Origin: Burkholderiales bacterium
GTDB taxonomy: Bacteria > Pseudomonadota > Gammaproteobacteria > Burkholderiales > SG8-39
DNA: 33,591 nt
Assembly: GCA_919902965.1 (NCBI GenBank)
Contig: CAKKSJ010000276.1
Span: 1-33,591, forward strand
Direction of reading: 5' to 3'
The notes under the pieces are model-generated. The model was given only the letters and a program-made list of their open reading frames with translations, did no database searches and was not told the origin of the DNA. The translations under genes and the position numbers were made by a program. Positions 16,073-22,945 of this stretch are shown here, one piece after another; within the stretch, counting starts at the first letter, position 1; each line of letters starts with the position of its first letter.

Positions 16073-17449
16073 ATGAGGTCCGTCCCCGCAGAGATTTTCA
16101 AGGCCTATGACATACGCGGTATCGTCGGGCGCACGCTCACCCCCGCAATCGTCGCCGCCATCGGCCGCGCGCTCGGATCGGAAGCGCGTGCGCGATCGCA
16201 AACGGCGCTTGCCATCGGCCGCGACGGCAGGCTGTCCGGCCCCGAATTGTCCGGCGCGCTGGCGCAGGGCTTGTGCGCTGCCGGGGTCGACGTCATCGAC
16301 ATCGGCATGGCGGCCACGCCCATGGGCTATTTTGCCGCGCATCACCTGGGCTGCGGCAGCGTGGTCATGGTCACGGGCAGCCACAATCCGCCTGACTACA
16401 ACGGCCTCAAGATGGTGCTCGGCGGGGTGACGCTGGCGCTCGATGACATCCAGCGCCTGCGCGCGCGGATCGAGGCCGGCGATTTTTCGAAAGGCGCTGG
16501 AAGCCGCACGACGGCCGATGTGCGTGAAGCTTATCTCGCGCGCATCGCATCCGACGTCAAGCTCGCGCGGCCCATGCGCATCGTCATCGACTGCGGCAAT
16601 GGCGTGGCCGGCGCGAGCGCGCCCGAGCTGTTCCGCCGCCTGGGCTGCACGGTGAGCGAGCTCTATTGCGAGGTCGACGGCAATTTCCCGAATCATCATC
16701 CCGATCCGTCCAAGCCGCATAACCTGCAGGAGCTGATCGCGGCGGTACGCGATACAGATGCAGAGCTGGGCCTTGCGTTCGATGGCGACGGCGACCGCCT
16801 CGGCGTGGTCACCAGGGATGGCAATATCATTTATCCCGACCGGCAGCTGATGCTGTTCGCCGACGACGTGCTCAAGCGCAACCCGGGCGCGGAGATCATT
16901 TACGACGTCAAGTGCACGCGCCGGCTCGCCCTCTGGATCAGCGAGCGCGGCGGCAAGCCGCTGATGTGGAAAACCGGGCATTCGCTGGTCAAGGCGAAAA
17001 TGAAGGAGCGCCATTCGCCCCTCGCCGGCGAGATGAGCGGGCATATATTCTTCGGCGAGCGCTGGTACGGTTTCGACGACGCGCAGTACGTGGGCGCGCG
17101 GCTGCTGGAAATCCTCAGCCGCCACACCGACCCGGACGCGGTGCTCGACGCGCTGCCCGACTCGATCAACACACCCGAGCTTAACTGGAAGCTTGCCGAA
17201 GGCGAGCCGCAGCGTCTGATCGAGGCGCTGCAGCACAGCGCGCGCTTTCCCGGCGCGCGCGAAGTCATCAAGCTCGACGGCCTGCGCGTGGAATACGCCG
17301 ACGGTTTCGGCCTCGCGCGCGCGTCCAACACCACGCCGGTGATCGTGCTGCGCTTCGAGGGCGACACGCAGGCGGCGCTAGAACGCATCCAGGCGGAATT
17401 CCGCGCCGTGCTGCAGGCGGCCAAGCCCGGCGCGCAACTGCCTTTTTAG
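16073..17449 (+). CDS. algC: Phosphomannomutase/phosphoglucomutase
   Basis: IFKAYDIRG, TGSHNP, FDGDGDR, GEMSGH and RASNTTP. Confidence 0.96.
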   Translation: MRSVPAEIFKAYDIRGIVGRTLTPAIVAAIGRALGSEARARSQTALAIGRDGRLSGPELSGALAQGLCAAGVDVIDIGMAATPMGYFAAHHLGCGSVVMVTGSHNPPDYNGLKMVLGGVTLALDDIQRLRARIEAGDFSKGAGSRTTADVREAYLARIASDVKLARPMRIVIDCGNGVAGASAPELFRRLGCTVSELYCEVDGNFPNHHPDPSKPHNLQELIAAVRDTDAELGLAFDGDGDRLGVVTRDGNIIYPDRQLMLFADDVLKRNPGAEIIYDVKCTRRLALWISERGGKPLMWKTGHSLVKAKMKERHSPLAGEMSGHIFFGERWYGFDDAQYVGARLLEILSRHTDPDAVLDALPDSINTPELNWKLAEGEPQRLIEALQHSARFPGAREVIKLDGLRVEYADGFGLARASNTTPVIVLRFEGDTQAALERIQAEFRAVLQAAKPGAQLPF

Positions 17450-17599
17450 GCAGCGGACGTTTATTGTATAGAGCTTGGGGGCGGCGCGCGGCCGCGTGTA
17501 GGCATGGATCCCGCAGACCGTACAAAAGTGGTGCTTTGCGAGCATGGTTCCAAATTGATAGGTGCCGAGCTCGTCTAGACCCGACACAAGCCGAAAGAG
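17447..17599 (-). pseudogene. C-terminal remnant of a GFA/CENP-V family protein
   Basis: LFRLVSGLDELGTYQFGTMLAKHHFCTVCGIHAYTRPRAAPKLYTINVRCL. There is no start codon, and the frame runs on antisense into algC. Confidence 0.8.
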
Positions 17600-17642
17600 G
17601 GCGTGCTCCTTTTCACGCGTTCCCTTCAAACGCAGGTTCGGG
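17599..17642 (-). repeat. Left-half remnant of an attC site
   Basis: CCCGAAC CTGCG TTTGAAGGGAACGCG... resembles R''/L''. The right half is missing. Confidence 0.45.
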
Positions 17643-18341
17643 GCGCCATTTGACAAGCGCCTCCTCTGCCGCCGCCCGCGCGTGTATGGTCGTGGTATCA
17701 AACAGCGGTACCACGGAATCCTGCTGGCTGACGAGAAGAGATATTTCCGTGCAGCCGAGAATAATGGCCTGCGCGCCTTGTGATGCCAGGCTATCCATGA
17801 CGCGTCGATACGCGCTGCGGGACTCGGGCAGAACAAGCCCTAAACACAGTTCTTCGTAAATGATGCGATGGATGGTCTTGCGGTCTTCCGCTTTCGGGAC
17901 GATCACTTGCAGCCCGTGACGTTCGCTCAAGCGGTCGCGGTAGAAGGCATCTTCCATCGTGAACCGCGTCCCGAGCAGGCCGACGCTGGAGTGGCCCGCC
18001 CGTTTGATTTCCGCTGCGGTCGGATCGGCGATGTGAAGCAATGGAATGCTGACAGCCGACTCAATGCTGGGGGCTACTTTGTGCATGGTGTTCGTGCATA
18101 AGACCAGGAATTCCGCACCGGCAGTCTCGAGCGAGCGAGCCGCTTTGGCCAAAACGGCTCCGGCAGCTTCCCAGTTGCCGGCATGCTGAAATTGCTCGAT
18201 GTCATGGAAGTCGACACTGTAGAGAAGCAATTTTGCCGAATGCAATCCACCCAGGCGGTCTTTGATCGTCTCGTTGATCAGCCGGTAATACGGAACTGTC
18301 GACTCCCAACTCATGCCGCCGATCAAACCGATGATTTTCAA
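17613..18341 (-). CDS. Aspartate/glutamate racemase family protein (gene cassette)
   Basis: IGLIGGMSWEST, LCTNTMH, LLGTRFTM and ILGCTEI. TTG start after GGAG. Confidence 0.93.
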   Translation of the reverse strand: MKIIGLIGGMSWESTVPYYRLINETIKDRLGGLHSAKLLLYSVDFHDIEQFQHAGNWEAAGAVLAKAARSLETAGAEFLVLCTNTMHKVAPSIESAVSIPLLHIADPTAAEIKRAGHSSVGLLGTRFTMEDAFYRDRLSERHGLQVIVPKAEDRKTIHRIIYEELCLGLVLPESRSAYRRVMDSLASQGAQAIILGCTEISLLVSQQDSVVPLFDTTTIHARAAAEEALVKWRPEPAFEGNA

Positions 18342-18368
18342 GTACGCTCTCCAGTGGTCAATGCTGAC

Positions 18369-18409
18369 GCGCAAGCTTTCCTTCAGCGGCGCGCAATGGA
18401 TGCTTGAGC
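18369..18409 (-). repeat. Internally shortened attC-like site (R'' GCTCAAG, R' CTTGCGC)
   Basis: 41 bp: GCTCAAG CATCCATTGCGCGCCGCTGAAGGAAAG CTTGCGC. It shares GCGCCGCTGAA with the site at 19394. Confidence 0.55.
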
Positions 18410-18817
18410 ATCCGCCACACCGATATACCACTTCGGCTTTATGCGTCCGAAGTCGCTGCGGATGTGTTGCCGGAGACCTTGCCTCGAGTCCAGGACGGAC
18501 GGCCGCTCGTTCTCCCGGGCGAACACTACCCAATGCCAGAAGGGTCGCCCACGTTCGAGATGCCATTTGATCGACAACAGGGCCAGATCGGGAAGCGCGT
18601 CCCAGGATCGGAACGGCGTCTCGGTGGCGTCTGCTTTAAGGCCAAAGCGGCGAAGCAGCTTGCGCACATGGGCAGTCTCCGACCAGAGCCTCTGGTCGTC
18701 CGCGTAAATGTCAAGAGCGCTGGCTACGTATTTCGCGCGCGAATACGATACGCCCGCAATCGCGGCGACACTCGCGATACCGCAACCTGTGGGCTCAAGT
18801 TGAATTACCGGCTTCAT
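18383..18817 (-). CDS. Hypothetical protein, peptidase C39-like (papain-fold) cassette
   Basis: Q-x4-GCG near the N-terminus, HWVV and VLD give a putative Q/C/H/D catalytic set. Confidence 0.65.
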   Translation of the reverse strand: MKPVIQLEPTGCGIASVAAIAGVSYSRAKYVASALDIYADDQRLWSETAHVRKLLRRFGLKADATETPFRSWDALPDLALLSIKWHLERGRPFWHWVVFARENERPSVLDSRQGLRQHIRSDFGRIKPKWYIGVADAQASIARR

Positions 18818-18823
18818 GCGGAT

Positions 18824-18881
18824 GCTCAAGCAGATGCAATCGGGCTGCGCGCTGCCGCGCCAGCTTGACCGCACTTTGGGC
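18824..18881 (-). repeat. Degenerate attC-like site (R'' GCCCAAA, R' CTTGAGC)
   Basis: 58 bp starting at the GNAT stop codon. R'' GCCCAA is complementary to the cassette start TTGGGC at 19394-19399. Confidence 0.55.
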
Positions 18882-19375
18882 TACACCGGCAGATGATACT
18901 CGAAACGTTGTTCATTGACCTCGGCGCCCCAGTGACCGCCGCGTTGCTGTCGGGTCAGGCGGAACCCGTACTTCTCATATAGATGACGCGCAGCAGCCAA
19001 GCCTTCAAAGGTCCACAAATAGATCTTTTTGTATTCTCGCGCGCGGCAAAAATCGAGCGCGGTACTTATCAGTTTGTTGCCCGCCCCGTTCCCGCGCAGG
19101 GCGTCGGAGACGATAAACCAGCGTAGATGTGCGCCTTCCGTTTCGGCCTCGCCAGCATCGATAGTGATCGAGCCTTCGATACGACCGTCGGAGAGCGCTA
19201 GCCACATGCCGTCGCGGGCGGCATCAAAACGGCGCAGGAACTCAGACAGCTCGCAAGCTACCTTGCTTTCAAAGTAAAGGCCGAATCCGCTGTGCCGCTG
19301 ATAGTAGGTGCCGTGTAGCTCGGTGATGCGGCCAATCGCGCCCGGCGCGTAATCTGCGGAGATTTCCAGGCTCAT
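18881..19375 (-). CDS. GNAT family N-acetyltransferase (gene cassette)
   Basis: AHLRWFIV..ALRGNGAG, IYLWTFEGLAAARHLYEKYGF. ATG at 19375 with RBS GGAG. Confidence 0.92.
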   Translation of the reverse strand: MSLEISADYAPGAIGRITELHGTYYQRHSGFGLYFESKVACELSEFLRRFDAARDGMWLALSDGRIEGSITIDAGEAETEGAHLRWFIVSDALRGNGAGNKLISTALDFCRAREYKKIYLWTFEGLAAARHLYEKYGFRLTRQQRGGHWGAEVNEQRFEYHLPV

Positions 19376-19393
19376 TCGAGATCTCCCATCGAG

Positions 19394-19460
19394 GCCCAAG
19401 GTCTGAATTCAGCGGCGCTGCGCGGCTTCATGCGCGTCGCCCTGCAAGCCGTGCTTGGGC
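19394..19460 (-). repeat. attC-like site (R'' GCCCAAG, R' CTTGGGC)
   Basis: 67 bp with perfectly complementary 7-bp outer boxes. Inner TTGCAG/CTGAA pair with an extrahelical base around a GC-rich central region. Confidence 0.75.
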
Positions 19461-19509
19461 GGCAGCGCGATTGAATCGGCCGGATCCCGATAGTCGCCGG
19501 CGCCGGCGT

Positions 19510-19965
19510 TCAGATTCCCGGGTAGCCGCGTTCCTCCAGGTCGAAACGATCCTCCTCGAGTGCGGTCGCCACGTCGCGCTGCAGGCCTATGCGTACCAGC
19601 GGCGCAAGGAGACTGAGCACTCCGTTCAACGGCATCTCGACCGTAGTCCGAACGCGCGTGCGGTCCGGGCCCACCGATTCGAATTCCTGGGTGATTAGCA
19701 GTCCCGCGTTCGATCCAGAGAGACTGCGCAGGGTCGAGCTGCCGTCGGTACGGCGCAAGACTTCGATCTCATCCTCCTGAAGCATGCCGAAAACGCGTCG
19801 GCGCCCCGTGAACCGACATCCGCCTTGCGTCGGGCGCACGCTGCTCACCTCAAGGTCGGCGTGCACCCGCGTCGACGCGTGATGCTCCATGTCGATGAAC
19901 TGCTTCTGCACCACCCCGATCGGGCGCGCGATGAGCTTTTCGCCGTGGACGACAATGCTAGCCAT
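19510..19965 (-). CDS. SRPBCC/polyketide cyclase-like protein (gene cassette)
   Basis: RBS AAGGGGG. Size and pattern (IARP...F.D..H, C-terminal amphipathic helix) fit an SRPBCC fold. Confidence 0.65.
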   Translation of the reverse strand: MASIVVHGEKLIARPIGVVQKQFIDMEHHASTRVHADLEVSSVRPTQGGCRFTGRRRVFGMLQEDEIEVLRRTDGSSTLRSLSGSNAGLLITQEFESVGPDRTRVRTTVEMPLNGVLSLLAPLVRIGLQRDVATALEEDRFDLEERGYPGI

Positions 19966-20098
19966 ATTTCCCCCTTCGGTGACCCTTGATAGACATCGCT
20001 TATCGACGAATGCTGCGTAAGTTTGGCCGAATGCGCAATTCTCCGGCGACCCTTACACCTGCCATAGCCGCATGGCGACAATCTTCAGACGGCGTCCC

Positions 20099-20200
20099 CT
20101 ATGCCGCCCAGCGCCAAAGCTCAGCTGCGGCAGTCACCTCGGAGATGACGCCAACATCGTCCTTTGTCTCGTCTCTTATCACGATTCCTTGTGTCGTCAC
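20099..20200 (-). pseudogene. Truncated GNAT (YhbS-like) cassette fused to the right half of an attC
   Basis: MTTQGIVIRDETKDDVGVISEVTAAA, followed directly by GCAGCTGAGCTTTGGC-GCTGGGC (L'/R'-like, 20106-20128). Confidence 0.65.
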
Positions 20201-20226
20201 GGCAATCTCATTTTACGTCGTTGCAG

Positions 20227-20297
20227 GCCCAACGTGAAAGTAACCGGCGCTGCGCGGTTTTCCCGCGCAGCGTCCGTGTTTGACTGCCGGCTTGGGT
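20227..20297 (-). repeat. attC site (R'' ACCCAAG, R' GTTGGGC)
   Basis: 71 bp with a central perfect stem CGCTGCGCGG/CCGCGCAGCG and a canonical GTTRRRY right end. Confidence 0.85.
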
Positions 20298-20325
20298 CGA
20301 TTTGGCGAGGGTCAACGGACGGCTC

Positions 20326-21414
20326 CTAAGCGGAAAACCGCTCAACCGCCTTTTCATTCCAGGCAACGCCGCTTCCCATGGATCCCTCTATGTTGGCCAT
20401 GCCCTTGTTGATCTCCAGGGGTTCGCTCATGATCGGATTCCACCAATCCACATATTCGAGCCAGTGGGCCGTCGGCGCCAGGCATAGAAGCTGTGCGCTT
20501 ATCTCCGGCCAGAGATGGTTGGAAAGGCGAATGCTTTTGGCTTGCGCGAGGCTCGCAGCCCGCAACCAACCCGTTACACCACCAATTTTCATAACGTCTG
20601 GCATCATGAAATCCGAGGCGCGTGCATCGATTGCATGCTGCATGTCCAGAGTGCCCCACCAGTTCTCACCACACTGGATCGGTGTTTTTGCTTCAGCGGC
20701 GATGACTGCATGCCCGGCATAGTCATGGGCGAGTGTCGGTTCCTCCACCCAGGTGAGGCCTTCTTCATCCAGTACGCGCAAGCGCTGCACCGCCTCCACC
20801 GGGGTCAAGCACTGGTTGTAGTCCACCATGATTGCGACCGAGTCGCCCACGGCGCTTCGCATGGCGCGAATCACCGCCAAGTCGTCCTGGACCGTGGCAT
20901 AACCAATCTTTGCTTTGATTCCGGCAAATCCCTGTTTGACCCACTCCCGCGCAGTCTTGGCGGAACCTTCGACCCCGTCATATCCCACTGCGCCGTAGGC
21001 CGGAATTGGTTTTGCGACGCCGCCGAGCAGACGCACCAGCGGTACGCCGTGGCTACGCGCAAGCGCATCCCAAAGTGCCATGTCAATGGCGGAAAGAGCG
21101 ATGCCGACAAGGCCTTGTGTGCCCAACAAACGAAAGCGCCTGGAGAGTTTCTGCTCGATCTCGGCCGGGGCTAGCAGATCGCCCGTGATAAGTGACTCCA
21201 GATTTCGAATCAGGTCCGCCGTCGGCTTCAGCGCAGCGGCAGTGTACGTAAACACTACGCTGTGGCCGACAACCCCGTCCTCGGTCGTGATGTCTGTCAG
21301 CACAAGGGGCGATTCTGAAACGGTGCCGCCGGCAGTCTGGTGCGGGTGCGCCATCGGCACACGGACTGCGCGCACCTCTACCGCTCGTATTCTGGACCTC
21401 ATGTCATGCGTCAT
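20326..21414 (-). CDS. mdlA: Mandelate racemase (enolase superfamily; gene cassette)
   Basis: KxK (IKAKIGY), IMVDYNQ, WVEEPTL.HDY.GH, GENW, MPD.MKIGGVTGW, S.HL..EISA and PTAHWLE. These match my recollection of the Pseudomonas putida mandelate racemase motifs. Confidence 0.8.
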   Translation of the reverse strand: MTHDMRSRIRAVEVRAVRVPMAHPHQTAGGTVSESPLVLTDITTEDGVVGHSVVFTYTAAALKPTADLIRNLESLITGDLLAPAEIEQKLSRRFRLLGTQGLVGIALSAIDMALWDALARSHGVPLVRLLGGVAKPIPAYGAVGYDGVEGSAKTAREWVKQGFAGIKAKIGYATVQDDLAVIRAMRSAVGDSVAIMVDYNQCLTPVEAVQRLRVLDEEGLTWVEEPTLAHDYAGHAVIAAEAKTPIQCGENWWGTLDMQHAIDARASDFMMPDVMKIGGVTGWLRAASLAQAKSIRLSNHLWPEISAQLLCLAPTAHWLEYVDWWNPIMSEPLEINKGMANIEGSMGSGVAWNEKAVERFSA

Positions 21415-21435
21415 GGCAGGCTCCATCTGAGGTAG

Positions 21436-21492
21436 ACCCAAGGCAAAGCTAAGTCGCAGCCGAAGGCGGTCGCCTTGAGCGCCATGTTATGC
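21436..21492 (-). repeat. attC site (R'' GCATAAC, R' CTTGGGT)
   Basis: 57 bp. R'' contains the methyltransferase TAA stop. L'' GCTCAAG pairs with L' CTTAGC with an extrahelical C, and the centre is GCC-TTC-GGC. Confidence 0.85.
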
Positions 21493-22131
21493 CCGCCTTT
21501 TTCTGGCATCAATCAACGTGTAGACGCCAAAGACCATTTCACGCGTTTCGACCTGTGCAGCTTTTTCATTTATGAAATCCACAATCGCCCCAACAGGCTT
21601 GGCGCCTACAACCATCGATTTCAGATATATGTAGGCATTTGCTAGCGGATGGTACCAATTGGACTTGAGAGGAATTGAGTCAATAATTAGCAATTGGCCG
21701 CCCGGCTTCAGAATAGAGATGCCTTTTTCTATTGCTCTTTGATAATCAGGCATCGCAGTGAGGGCGAGGCAAAACACTACTGCATCGGCCTTGTTCGTCG
21801 GTGAGAAGTCATACATGTCCATGCACTCAAAGCGGACGTTGCGCCAGCCATTGCTTACTCTTTTTTGGTTCGCCAGATCAATCATTTGACTGGAGAAATC
21901 AATGCCAATTATCTCTATTGATTCGCCGTATCTTCCTAAAATGCTTGGCACTACGGAGGCGGGGCCACAACCCAACTCAACCACGGTGCCCCCTTCGGGG
22001 AGGTCAAGCCTATTTGCCACCTCATCATAAAGCCGGGAGGCCTGACCGAGGCTCAAAAGGAAAGCAACGAAGTCGTAACTTGAAGCCACAAGATCATATT
22101 TGTTCTTATTAGCTACTTGCCTGATGTCCAC
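21487..22131 (-). CDS. Class I SAM-dependent methyltransferase (gene cassette, low GC)
   Basis: VVELGCGP, GIDFS..M and LKPGGQLLI. GTG start with RBS GGAGG. Visibly more AT-rich than the flanks. Confidence 0.9.
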   Translation of the reverse strand: MDIRQVANKNKYDLVASSYDFVAFLLSLGQASRLYDEVANRLDLPEGGTVVELGCGPASVVPSILGRYGESIEIIGIDFSSQMIDLANQKRVSNGWRNVRFECMDMYDFSPTNKADAVVFCLALTAMPDYQRAIEKGISILKPGGQLLIIDSIPLKSNWYHPLANAYIYLKSMVVGAKPVGAIVDFINEKAAQVETREMVFGVYTLIDARKRRA

Positions 22132-22204
22132 CTTAACCTCCCCGAAGTTTATTCAGTATTCCATCGTGTTTCGGGCATAAGGTCGTCGCCAACCGGCGGC
22201 CCGC

Positions 22205-22945
22205 TTAGCTGAAGTCCGGCGCAATCAGGTCCAGCCGGTCGGTGACAATCGCGTCGACGCCCCAATCGAGCAGCACGCGCGCAGTCTCCGGGTCGTTGAC
22301 GGTGTAGCACAGCAGCCAGTAGCCCGCCTCGCGCACCGCGCGCGCCTGCTGCGGCAGCAGCATGCGGTAGTCGCAGTGCAGCGACACGCAGCCGAGCTTT
22401 TGCATCCAGTGTTTCCAGTCGGCCGGGATGGTCTGGGTCAGGCCGCCGCGCGGCAATTCCGGCACCGCTTCCCTGGCGGCAGCGAGCGCTGCGGGCTGGA
22501 ACGAGCACAGCAGGGGCTGCACCGCCGCGCCGCGCCAGAGTTCGCGCGCGGCGCGCGCCGCCGCTGTGCCGGTCTGCGCTTCGAATCCCTTGCTTGGCTT
22601 GATTTCGATGTCGGCCCAGAGCCCGAGTTCCACGCACAAGCGGCCCGCCTGCTCGAAGCTCGGCACGGGTTCGCCGGCGTGTTGCGCGGAGAACCAGCTG
22701 CCGGCGTCGAGCGTGAGCATGTCGCGGTACGCGGTCGCGGCGATAGCGCCGCTGCCGCTGGTGGTGCGCGCCAGCGTCTCGTCGTGCATCAGGATCGGGG
22801 TGGCGTCGCCGGCCAGCATGACGTCGAATTCGACCCCGGCAAAGCCGAGTTGCTTCGCCTTGCGCATGCCGGCGAGCGTGTTTTCCGGCGCAAGCGTGCC
22901 GCCGCCGCGGTGCGCGATGATGCGCGGATAGGGCCAGGGCTTCAT
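22205..22945 (-). CDS. ugpQ: Glycerophosphodiester phosphodiesterase
   Basis: WPYPRIIAHRGGG.LAPENT, VEFDV, LMHDETL.RT, IEIKP, YTVND and IVTD. Confidence 0.95.
   Translation of the reverse strand: MKPWPYPRIIAHRGGGTLAPENTLAGMRKAKQLGFAGVEFDVMLAGDATPILMHDETLARTTSGSGAIAATAYRDMLTLDAGSWFSAQHAGEPVPSFEQAGRLCVELGLWADIEIKPSKGFEAQTGTAAARAARELWRGAAVQPLLCSFQPAALAAAREAVPELPRGGLTQTIPADWKHWMQKLGCVSLHCDYRMLLPQQARAVREAGYWLLCYTVNDPETARVLLDWGVDAIVTDRLDLIAPDFS

Follow-up and report, generated by a model that had tools for sequence, protein, structure and literature searches.

The window analysed here, 33,591 nucleotides of a Burkholderiales bacterium (contig CAKKSJ010000276.1, hereafter C276), carries on its minus strand an array of six integron cassettes whose recombination sites (attC) deviate from the usual pattern at one pair of bases. 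The triplets AAC and GTT are regarded as the single feature of integron recombination sites that does not vary. None of the six sites in the window keeps both: AA and TT are retained, and the C/G pair at the crossover is changed. The changes are confined to this crossover pair and are concentrated in integrase-less arrays at a single chromosomal locus, between the genes of glycerophosphodiester phosphodiesterase (GDPD) and phosphoglucomutase/phosphomannomutase (PGM). They do not point to a recombinase with a new code. We tentatively suggest that, after the array lost its integrase platform, the canonical integrase (IntI) still resident in the genome removed the cassettes that it could excise, and that the surviving sites are those that had mutated at the docking pair.

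The crossover pair and its changes

Cleavage by IntI1, as described in the sections of Frumerie et al. 2010 (PMC2811028) drawn on here, separates A from C in the AAC of the bottom strand, and the released C docks on the partner site, so that the first GTT nucleotide must match in both partners. With CTT in one partner recombination falls to 1.5e-3 or 1.5e-4 of the wild-type level; when both partners carry it the value is 0.97 (Table 4 of the same source), and a change of T2 or T3 in one partner is tolerated. The same sections report GTT in all integrons characterised up to 2010 and ascribe this to the exchangeability of cassettes. A GWT consensus at genomic insertion sites and the easy loss of attC by slippage are described in the part of a preprint by Loot et al. 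used here.

The normal pair consists of the C of the R'' AAC and the G of the R' GTT. Here it reads G/C or is half-changed (AAC/CTT, AAG/GTT). The crossover G has become C at five of the seven junctions of the window, and the paired C has become G in three of the six sites and A in one. Both positions are changed in attC3 and attC5, three sites are half-changed, and attC4 has A opposite C. An earlier note on this DNA had described attC-like sites with recurrent changes of the crossover base, a description that holds: all of its 7-mers are present on the minus strand (single coordinates being low, plus-strand ends), where they bound the six cassettes, and its palindromes are attC sites or remnants of them. 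The R' boxes are CTTATGC (22175-22181), CTTGGGT (21436-21442), GTTGGGC (20227-20233), GCTGGGC (20106-20112), CTTGGGC (19394-19400), CTTGAGC (18824-18830) and CTTGCGC (18369-18375); the R'' boxes are GCATAAC (21486-21492), ACCCAAG (20291-20297), GCCCAAG (19454-19460), GCCCAAA (18875-18881), GCTCAAG (18403-18409) and CCCGAAC (17636-17642). The 7-mers are cassette junctions, since the first six bases of the cassettes complement their own R'', exactly so in four of the six (TTATGC/GCATAA, TTGGGT/ACCCAA, TTGGGC/GCCCAA and TTGAGC/GCTCAA). Cassette 3 has one mismatch (CTGGGC against GCCCAA), and in cassette 6 TTGCGC does not complement CCCGAA. The L'' (GCTCAAG) and L' (CTTAGC) boxes of attC1 have the usual extra base.

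The sites were scored with covariance models. A model made from one site (R1) gave the other window sites 8-16 bits amid noise and served as a stepping stone only. Model R2 was made from four window sites and one canonical site of contig C6, with the crossover bases left unpaired. It produced 95 matches in 80 loci fetched with the IntI protein of the genome, 89 of them on the strand opposite to intI, as expected of real arrays. Model R3 was built solely from these 95 matches in the IntI loci of other organisms and includes nothing from the window genome. The sites and junctions of the array, all on the minus strand, are as follows.

22175-22181, minus: left boundary junction C|TTATGC, start of cassette 1; the left edge of the array, not an attC end
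21436-21492, minus: attC1, GCATAAC...TTTGC C|TTGGGT; AAC with CTT, crossover pair mismatched; R3 36.4 bits, E 5.7e-7
20227-20297, minus: attC2, ACCCAAG...TTCAC G|TTGGGC; AAG with GTT, mismatched; R3 49.6 bits
20106-20112, minus: junction G|CTGGGC, where cassette 3 begins; GTTGGGC with the change T2>C
19394-19460, minus: attC3, GCCCAAG...CAGAC C|TTGGGC; AAG with CTT, compensated; R3 36.3 bits
18824-18881, minus: attC4, degenerate, GCCCAAA...ATCTG C|TTGAGC; found by R2, of which it is itself a seed, and not by R3 at E<=1
18369-18409, minus: attC5 remnant of 41 nt, GCTCAAG...GGAAAG C|TTGCGC; internal deletion of about 21 nt against its homolog in genome G009 (GCCCAAC...GGAAAC GCTGCGC)
17598-17642, minus: 5' stump of attC6, R'' CCCGAAC; deletion-fused to the middle of a GFA gene

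The R3 scores of attC1, attC2 and attC3 lie within the range of canonical sites of the same genome (26.9-67.8 bits at E<=1e-3), and at E<=1 the model misses 18824-18881, 18369-18409 and 17581-17642. Judged by these scores, attC1-3 are sound attC sites and the remaining three are damaged remnants; scoring of the palindromes as attC, which the earlier note had made a test of its proposal, is thus obtained for three of the six, with their triplets unrepaired. Its two compensated sites, with AAG facing CTT, are likewise confirmed at 19394 (attC3) and at 18369 (attC5), the latter damaged by deletion. Recurrence of the change also stands, and the count of about eight does not, because the R'' at 17636 belongs to a remnant made by deletion and the C at 22181 lies at the left boundary of the array. 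No Rfam family reaches its gathering threshold in the window. Scanners relying on structure only (R-box pairing, constrained folding energy, an L-box bulge rule) were dropped, with 6533 matches in the genome against 5785 in a reversed-sequence control, and a MAFFT alignment of the sites and a two-strand alignment were unfit for model building.

The specificity of the change is seen when the six sound sites of two orphan arrays, that of the window and that of genome G020 at the same locus, are taken together. The crossover pair is altered at 5 of 12 positions and the adjoining AA and TT at 0 of 24 (p 0.002). Uniform decay does not predict such a pattern, in agreement with the view of the earlier note that the changes are hard to explain by random decay. 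C|TT occurs in two of the three sound sites of the window and in one of three in G020, and the damaged junctions in both arrays are mostly C|TT as well. A crossover C is thus present in three of the six model-supported sites at the locus against 2 of about 163 other model matches, with a p of about 2e-4 that is rough, as kinship and site choice are not independent and the site sets derive from metagenome-assembled genomes (MAGs). AAG is linked with CTT, at 2 of 7 against 2 of about 160.

All compared genomes are MAGs or species representatives, the covariance models overlook some sites, and the counts below refer to retrieved sites. In the 80 IntI loci, AAC and GTT occur together in 80 of the 89 minus-strand matches, and one real C|TT was found (L069:5497-5555). 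This attC is clean, reads AAC and C|TTAGCC, and belongs to an intI-linked array from another genus, where it is the most distal model match. A scan of the genus, in which 150 candidates per genome were scored and at least the C|TT site of G020 was overlooked, gave 71 matches outside the window genome (G000); among the 60 examined, with the 11 weakest left out, CTT occurs in none, ATT in two, GCT in three and AAG with GTT in one. Elsewhere in the window genome C|TT is found in 1 of 20 attC matches (C136:26892-26959, 46.8 bits). In the collected attC matches the base preceding GTT is almost always C (..AC GTT), which places the crossover G in a CpG, with AACG on the bottom strand.

Three apparent CTT boxes were rejected. 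C424:1673-1730 is a truncated terminal attC whose homologs L159 and L177 run on to ..GCGGAC GT, L018:5366-5399 is a plain palindrome, and CTTGTGT at 17581, read as an R' box, lies inside GFA-homologous sequence. A search of 401 genomes of the order with the pattern GCCCAAGN{45,75}CTTGGGC yielded about as many matches as the reversed-pattern control, and no listed match resembled an attC, which is not evidence either way. Two array ends of the genome, C136:26350-26420 and C424:1673-1740, are truncated attC sites fused to ordinary chromosomal genes, that of C136 coding for an OmpR-type response regulator by reading of the sequence. At least four array ends are present in this one MAG (C136, C424, C6 and the window).

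The variants, their ancestry and the locus

The crossover changes are real. The window stretch or a part of it is held by 20 listed sequencing runs of eight groundwater studies, and at least half of its words by 12. Contigs from two of the runs (X4 and X10), belonging to studies other than the likely source, cover all sites with no differences, so that independent data keep the variants and show no reversion to GTT or AAC, a check that the earlier note had called for. One X4 piece over the left boundary (21718-22300) has two other letters, their places not being given. Runs X12 and X13 hold diverged strains. A contig of 301 nt from X12 (18649-18949) has all of its four differences inside attC4 and keeps the C at 18830. 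An assembly or sequencing artefact, for which the fragmentation of the MAG (514 contigs, 6.6% contamination) might speak, is hardly credible against the 20 runs of eight studies and the identical contigs of X4 and X10.

Joints also occur in contigs from the runs X12 and X13: 17597 to 19425 with 210 letters between (X12), 17554 to 17650 (X13), and 20103 to 20263. They may be variants of cassette content, or cassettes of other organisms sharing attC halves, and are not used as evidence of recombination. In all four runs contig depth over the central stem of attC2 (20188-20351) is far above that of its flanks, reaching 1551 against about 4 in X10. The attC2 family appears to be common to very many cassettes in these groundwater communities.

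Comparison with homologs shows that the C|TT and AAG states are derived, several times over, as the homologs of the affected cassettes or attC families read AAC...G|TT wherever they are found. Cassette 3 occurs in three metagenome contigs (L247, L248, L249) with GCCCAAC or GCTCAAC...GAAC G|T and three different downstream neighbours, and in L248 its junction sits at an attI. With one copy at an attI and neighbours that differ, cassette 3 is a mobile and normal cassette elsewhere. The same three homologs begin with G|TTGGGC GGCAT.. and have the same 5' untranslated region, so that GCTGGGC at 20106 is a true cassette start with a T2>C change. Four members of the attC2 family in the genus have AAC and G|TT. 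L156, a relative of the C|TT site of C136, and L162, a relative of the G020 site, have AAC and G|TT, and the attC5 homolog in G009 has AAC and G|CT.

The crossover base is that of the site upstream, in keeping with the standard mechanism, because a HAD cassette follows G|TTAGGC in G000:C128 and C|TTAGGC in G020. A crossover shifted by one base, with the C travelling with the downstream cassette, had been prompted by the C that precedes the 163-aa cassette in G000 as well as G009, and the racemase cassette in G000 as well as G020. The HAD cassette contradicts this idea, and the shifted reading fits two of five cassettes, as does the standard one.

The run of same-strand open reading frames (ORFs) on the minus strand, each followed by an imperfect palindrome at its 3' end, lies between the GDPD gene and the convergent PGM gene, and its G+C content is 58% against 62.7% for the contig. 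It is the chromosomal integron cassette array of the genus without intI and attI, because sister genomes hold an intI, a remnant of it or an integrase-less array at the same GDPD-PGM locus. GDPD is matched in all 22 other genomes of the genus, near full length in 19 of them at 79-86% DNA identity. In G010 and G004, intI follows GDPD immediately downstream and is oriented back towards it; attI and the cassettes lie on its far side. G015 retains, directly after GDPD, no more than the opening codons of intI and a part of attI. The distance between GDPD and the end of PGM is 1.1-1.45 kb in G013 and G021. In G020 it is about 7 kb, and the interval there is another integrase-less array that has the racemase cassette (81%) and the GFA gene in common with the window. 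At the window locus both intI and attI are missing: a search of contig C276 with the TIGR02249 profile gave no match, and the gap between the GDPD stop codon and the first cassette is only 23 nt. The locus is accordingly not a complete integron, in which intI and attI would adjoin the array. Its genes and other features are listed below.

22205-22945, minus: GDPD, the conserved chromosomal flank upstream of the array (Pfam PF03009, 139 bits)
22182-22204, minus: stretch of 23 nt from the GDPD stop codon to the first cassette, ending ..GGCGACGAC, which resembles the 3' spacer of an attC
21487-22131, minus: cassette 1 ORF, S-adenosylmethionine-dependent methyltransferase (Pfam Methyltransf_25, 63 bits)
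20326-21441, minus: cassette 2 ORF, mandelate racemase/muconate lactonizing enzyme family (Pfam MR_MLE_C 167 bits, MR_MLE_N 81 bits)
20113-20232, minus: remnant cassette, an N-terminal ORF fragment fused to an apparent attC 3' end (..CTGAGC TTTGGC G|), as read from the sequence
19510-19965, minus: cassette 3 ORF, 151 aa; no Pfam family matched
18881-19399, minus: cassette 4 ORF, GNAT acetyltransferase (Pfam Acetyltransf_1, 58 bits)
18383-18874, minus: cassette 5 ORF, 163 aa; no Pfam family matched; 83% DNA homolog in G009:C167
17613-18341, minus: cassette 6 ORF, Asp/Glu racemase (Pfam Asp_Glu_race, 150 bits); 81% ortholog at the same locus in G020
17449-17597, minus: fragment of a GFA-family gene, the final remnant in the array (weak match to Pfam GFA, 17.8 bits); 85% identity to G020:C34
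16073-17449, plus: PGM, the conserved flank at the far end (Pfam PGM_PMM I-IV)

Cassette 1 has no homolog in the 22 other genomes of the genus. Metagenome contigs encode 13 relatives of the cassette 3 protein, of which three are 85-86% identical to it, and cassette 4 has an 83% DNA homolog in G015 with the R'' GCCGAAC. Homology to the GFA cassette of G020 begins at 17597, and G020, in which the GFA gene is whole, holds a further cassette and the 5' half of that gene in between. Taken together, these comparisons show the window array in decay, its attC sites and cassettes losing internal sequence to deletions.

The only full-length IntI of the genome is encoded on contig C15 (TIGR02249, 488 bits; VchIntIA 2A3V, 324 bits, end-to-end alignment) and is by its sequence canonical and apparently intact. 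Its gene has 91% DNA identity to the GDPD-linked intI of G010, and the downstream flank is unrelated. C15 ends 27 nt short of the expected attI crossover; the three closest relatives of its IntI (L105, L106, L107) have attI sites reading ..TAAG|TT or ..CAAG|TT. Across the genus, with crossovers placed by homology and pattern, all 15 readable attI sites beside a full-length intI have G|TT and none has C|TT. The genome has a second integron, in which intI (C128:8049-8327, L002) matches only model residues 1-93, within an open frame of 567 aa. Its array (C128:9100-13850, L189) has an attI reading ..CGACTTC G|TTAGGC, 2 nt shorter than its relatives, and five of five attC matches are canonical.

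Two platform remnants were seen in other genomes. In L213 (G009:C167, about 840-1010) intI is reduced to about 20 codons, with a LexA-box-like palindrome and attI kept. This attI reads ..ATTATTGGAC C|TTGGGC where its relatives have ..GATTGAAC G|TT, and the cassette that comes first is homologous to window cassette 5. In L214 (G015:C52, 1350-1560) a remnant of the intI start codon and a partly deleted attI stand directly after GDPD; next come ..CCAATCA C|TTAGGC and one cassette, which is degenerate.

Possible origins of the crossover changes

Under the explanation that we tentatively prefer, the IntI of C15 would keep excising in trans any segment between two compatible sites, and excised cassettes would not be put back, as no attI is left at the locus. 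The array would be sieved in this manner until none of its sites could recombine with a canonical partner, the net effect being fixation, or domestication, of the remaining cassettes and not a new code of recombination. Only the first GTT nucleotide and its partner would protect a site as a single change, by 10^3- to 10^4-fold in IntI1, lone changes of T being tolerated; alteration of the crossover pair alone would follow, because a single change there alone blocks recombination. The suggestion of the earlier note that a process locks cassettes by altering this base agrees with the IntI1 values for CTT against a GTT partner quoted above, as far as those parts of PMC2811028 go. The window without any AAC-GTT site and the distal position of the C|TT site of L069 are consistent with such sieving. 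G020 contains two adjacent canonical sites that flank a two-gene cassette, encoding an HTH_3 protein and a partner of 94 aa without a Pfam match. This cassette is possibly a toxin-antitoxin pair, the loss of which would be counter-selected. A Pfam scan of small toxin-antitoxin ORFs gave HicA above the cut-off, and BrnT and CopG below it.

Several observations weigh against sieving. Transitions are the commonest mutations to be expected, and a sieve predicts any disabling base, whereas G<->C accounts for nine of the ten deviations at the pair. Between homologous attC bodies 25 of 101 substitutions are C<->G, and under this spectrum the tail probability of the G<->C excess is 0.002-0.013 (computed for eight of nine deviations), so that the excess is only partly explained. 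In this respect, too, the earlier note overstated its case, G<->C being common inside attC bodies. The docking rule makes attC1 (C,C) a compatible partner for attC2 (G,G), and the cassette between them is not obviously locked. The orphan array of C128, with its truncated intI, nevertheless retains a G|TT attI and canonical attC throughout, so that integrase loss alone does not bring the change. C|TT attI sites occur in two of six integrons with degenerate intI against none of the 15 with full-length intI (p 0.07), a weak link in which the G015 junction is uncertain, its attI being partly deleted. The docking data, finally, concern IntI1 rather than the present IntI and were obtained in partner tests, outside which the excision between half-changed attC sites lies.

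Neutral decay with a local bias is possible, if somewhat unlikely. Unconstrained sites would change at a hot spot, or through G<->C substitutions common in GC-rich hairpins, and compensation would come from hairpin-templated (quasi-palindrome) correction. The visible decay of the array, with its deletions and the T2>C junction, agrees with this, as do the differences of X12, all inside attC4, the share of C<->G among attC-body substitutions, and the alignment of the attC3 AAG, which is best as a 1-nt insertion and a 1-nt deletion. Elsewhere, too, the same positions vary sporadically (two ATT, one AAG/GTT and one C|TT). Decay of this kind is at odds with the untouched AA/TT neighbours of the pair at the six model-supported sites and with the scores of attC1-3, which the independent model treats as ordinary sites and which are therefore not broadly decayed. 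No known mechanism aims at exactly these two bases, and the hairpin-templated route fails for the C|TT of the G009 attI, which is double-stranded. Restriction-site or CpG (ACGT) avoidance, creation of promoters or start codons, and top-strand or inverted insertion were set aside by reasoning, as none predicts G>C specifically. Quite unlikely, in our estimation, is an orthogonal exchange group, in which AAG/CTT sites would still be moved by an ordinary IntI, only among themselves, so that their cassette pool stands apart from the GTT pool; that natural sites switch the crossover G to C and stay active, forming C|TT-only pools moved by an ordinary integrase, seems a shade more doubtful still. 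The efficiency of IntI1 with CTT in both partners, near that of wild type in the cited part of PMC2811028, would allow it. It would accommodate the compensated attC3 and attC5, the ACCCAAG...C|TTGCGC site ahead of the shared racemase cassette in G020, the association of AAG with CTT, the retained AA and TT, and the C|TT of the G009 attI. Cassettes 1 and 2, without a homolog in the genus, further suggest that the array gained cassettes after its split from G020. Such exchange is contradicted by the mismatch in half of the altered sites (attC1, attC2, the C136 site and the G020 site) and by the deletion in the compensated attC5. No cassette turned up at two locations with an identical C-type attC, and cassette 3 is canonical in three of three other contexts. 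The cassette behind the C|TT attI of G009 has a canonical-type attC with AAC, and none of the 15 intact platforms has a C|TT attI.

That these junctions were made by another recombinase, or by an altered one, specific for C|TT, one of the two proposals of the earlier note, is very improbable. The pattern itself is what speaks for it, the deleted intI of the locus being beyond inspection. The contig encodes no tyrosine recombinase, the ortholog of the locus intI (on C15) and its relatives go with G|TT attI sites, and the C-type states derive from canonical cassettes, the base before the HAD cassette being that of the upstream site. The proposal is further contradicted by the canonical C15 IntI, by the G|TT attI of its three closest relatives, and by 19 of the 20 other attC matches of the genome being without C|TT. 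Sieving by the resident canonical integrase remains the account that we tentatively adopt.

Comparison with known integrons

The window offers a natural case in which the exchange-critical pair alone has changed repeatedly in an array without its platform. If sieving is the cause, it shows a route from cassettes to fixed chromosomal genes, predicts that orphan arrays will show variants of the crossover pair where the genome retains an integrase, and implies that attC finders tuned to GTT and AAC under-call such sites. If a separate C|TT pool existed instead, cassette exchange would be naturally partitioned within a community in a way so far undescribed, a counterpart of the engineered change of target specificity.

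The array resembles canonical IntI/attI/attC arrays in its promoterless ORFs, each followed by an R''-L''...L'-R' palindrome, in the extra base of the L box and in cassette starts complementary to R''; it differs from them in having no site with both AAC and GTT and no intI or attI at the locus. Chromosomal integrons in decay, their integrases inactivated, are known, for example in Xanthomonas. With decay of the Xanthomonas type the window shares a locus fixed within the genus, a lost integrase and degenerate recombination sites. A CALIN (attC sites clustered together without an integrase), which the parts of 10.1101/2022.09.11.507474 used here define by several attC within 4 kb and no intI, is also matched: three R3-supported attC lie within 2.1 kb, and the nearest intI is on another contig. 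The origin of the window array by integrase loss is traceable, since sister species keep intI at the same locus. A limited full-text search, over papers available in part, returned no mention of a systematic change of the crossover pair in CALINs. The closest likeness is with the engineered G1 mutants of attC(aadA7) and attI1 in the cited sections of Frumerie et al. (PMC2811028). Whereas those were made in the laboratory, the variants of the window are natural, many of them half-changed, and known from sequence alone; the position and the base are the same, and the "change of target specificity" obtained in the laboratory consists of CTT with an AAG partner.

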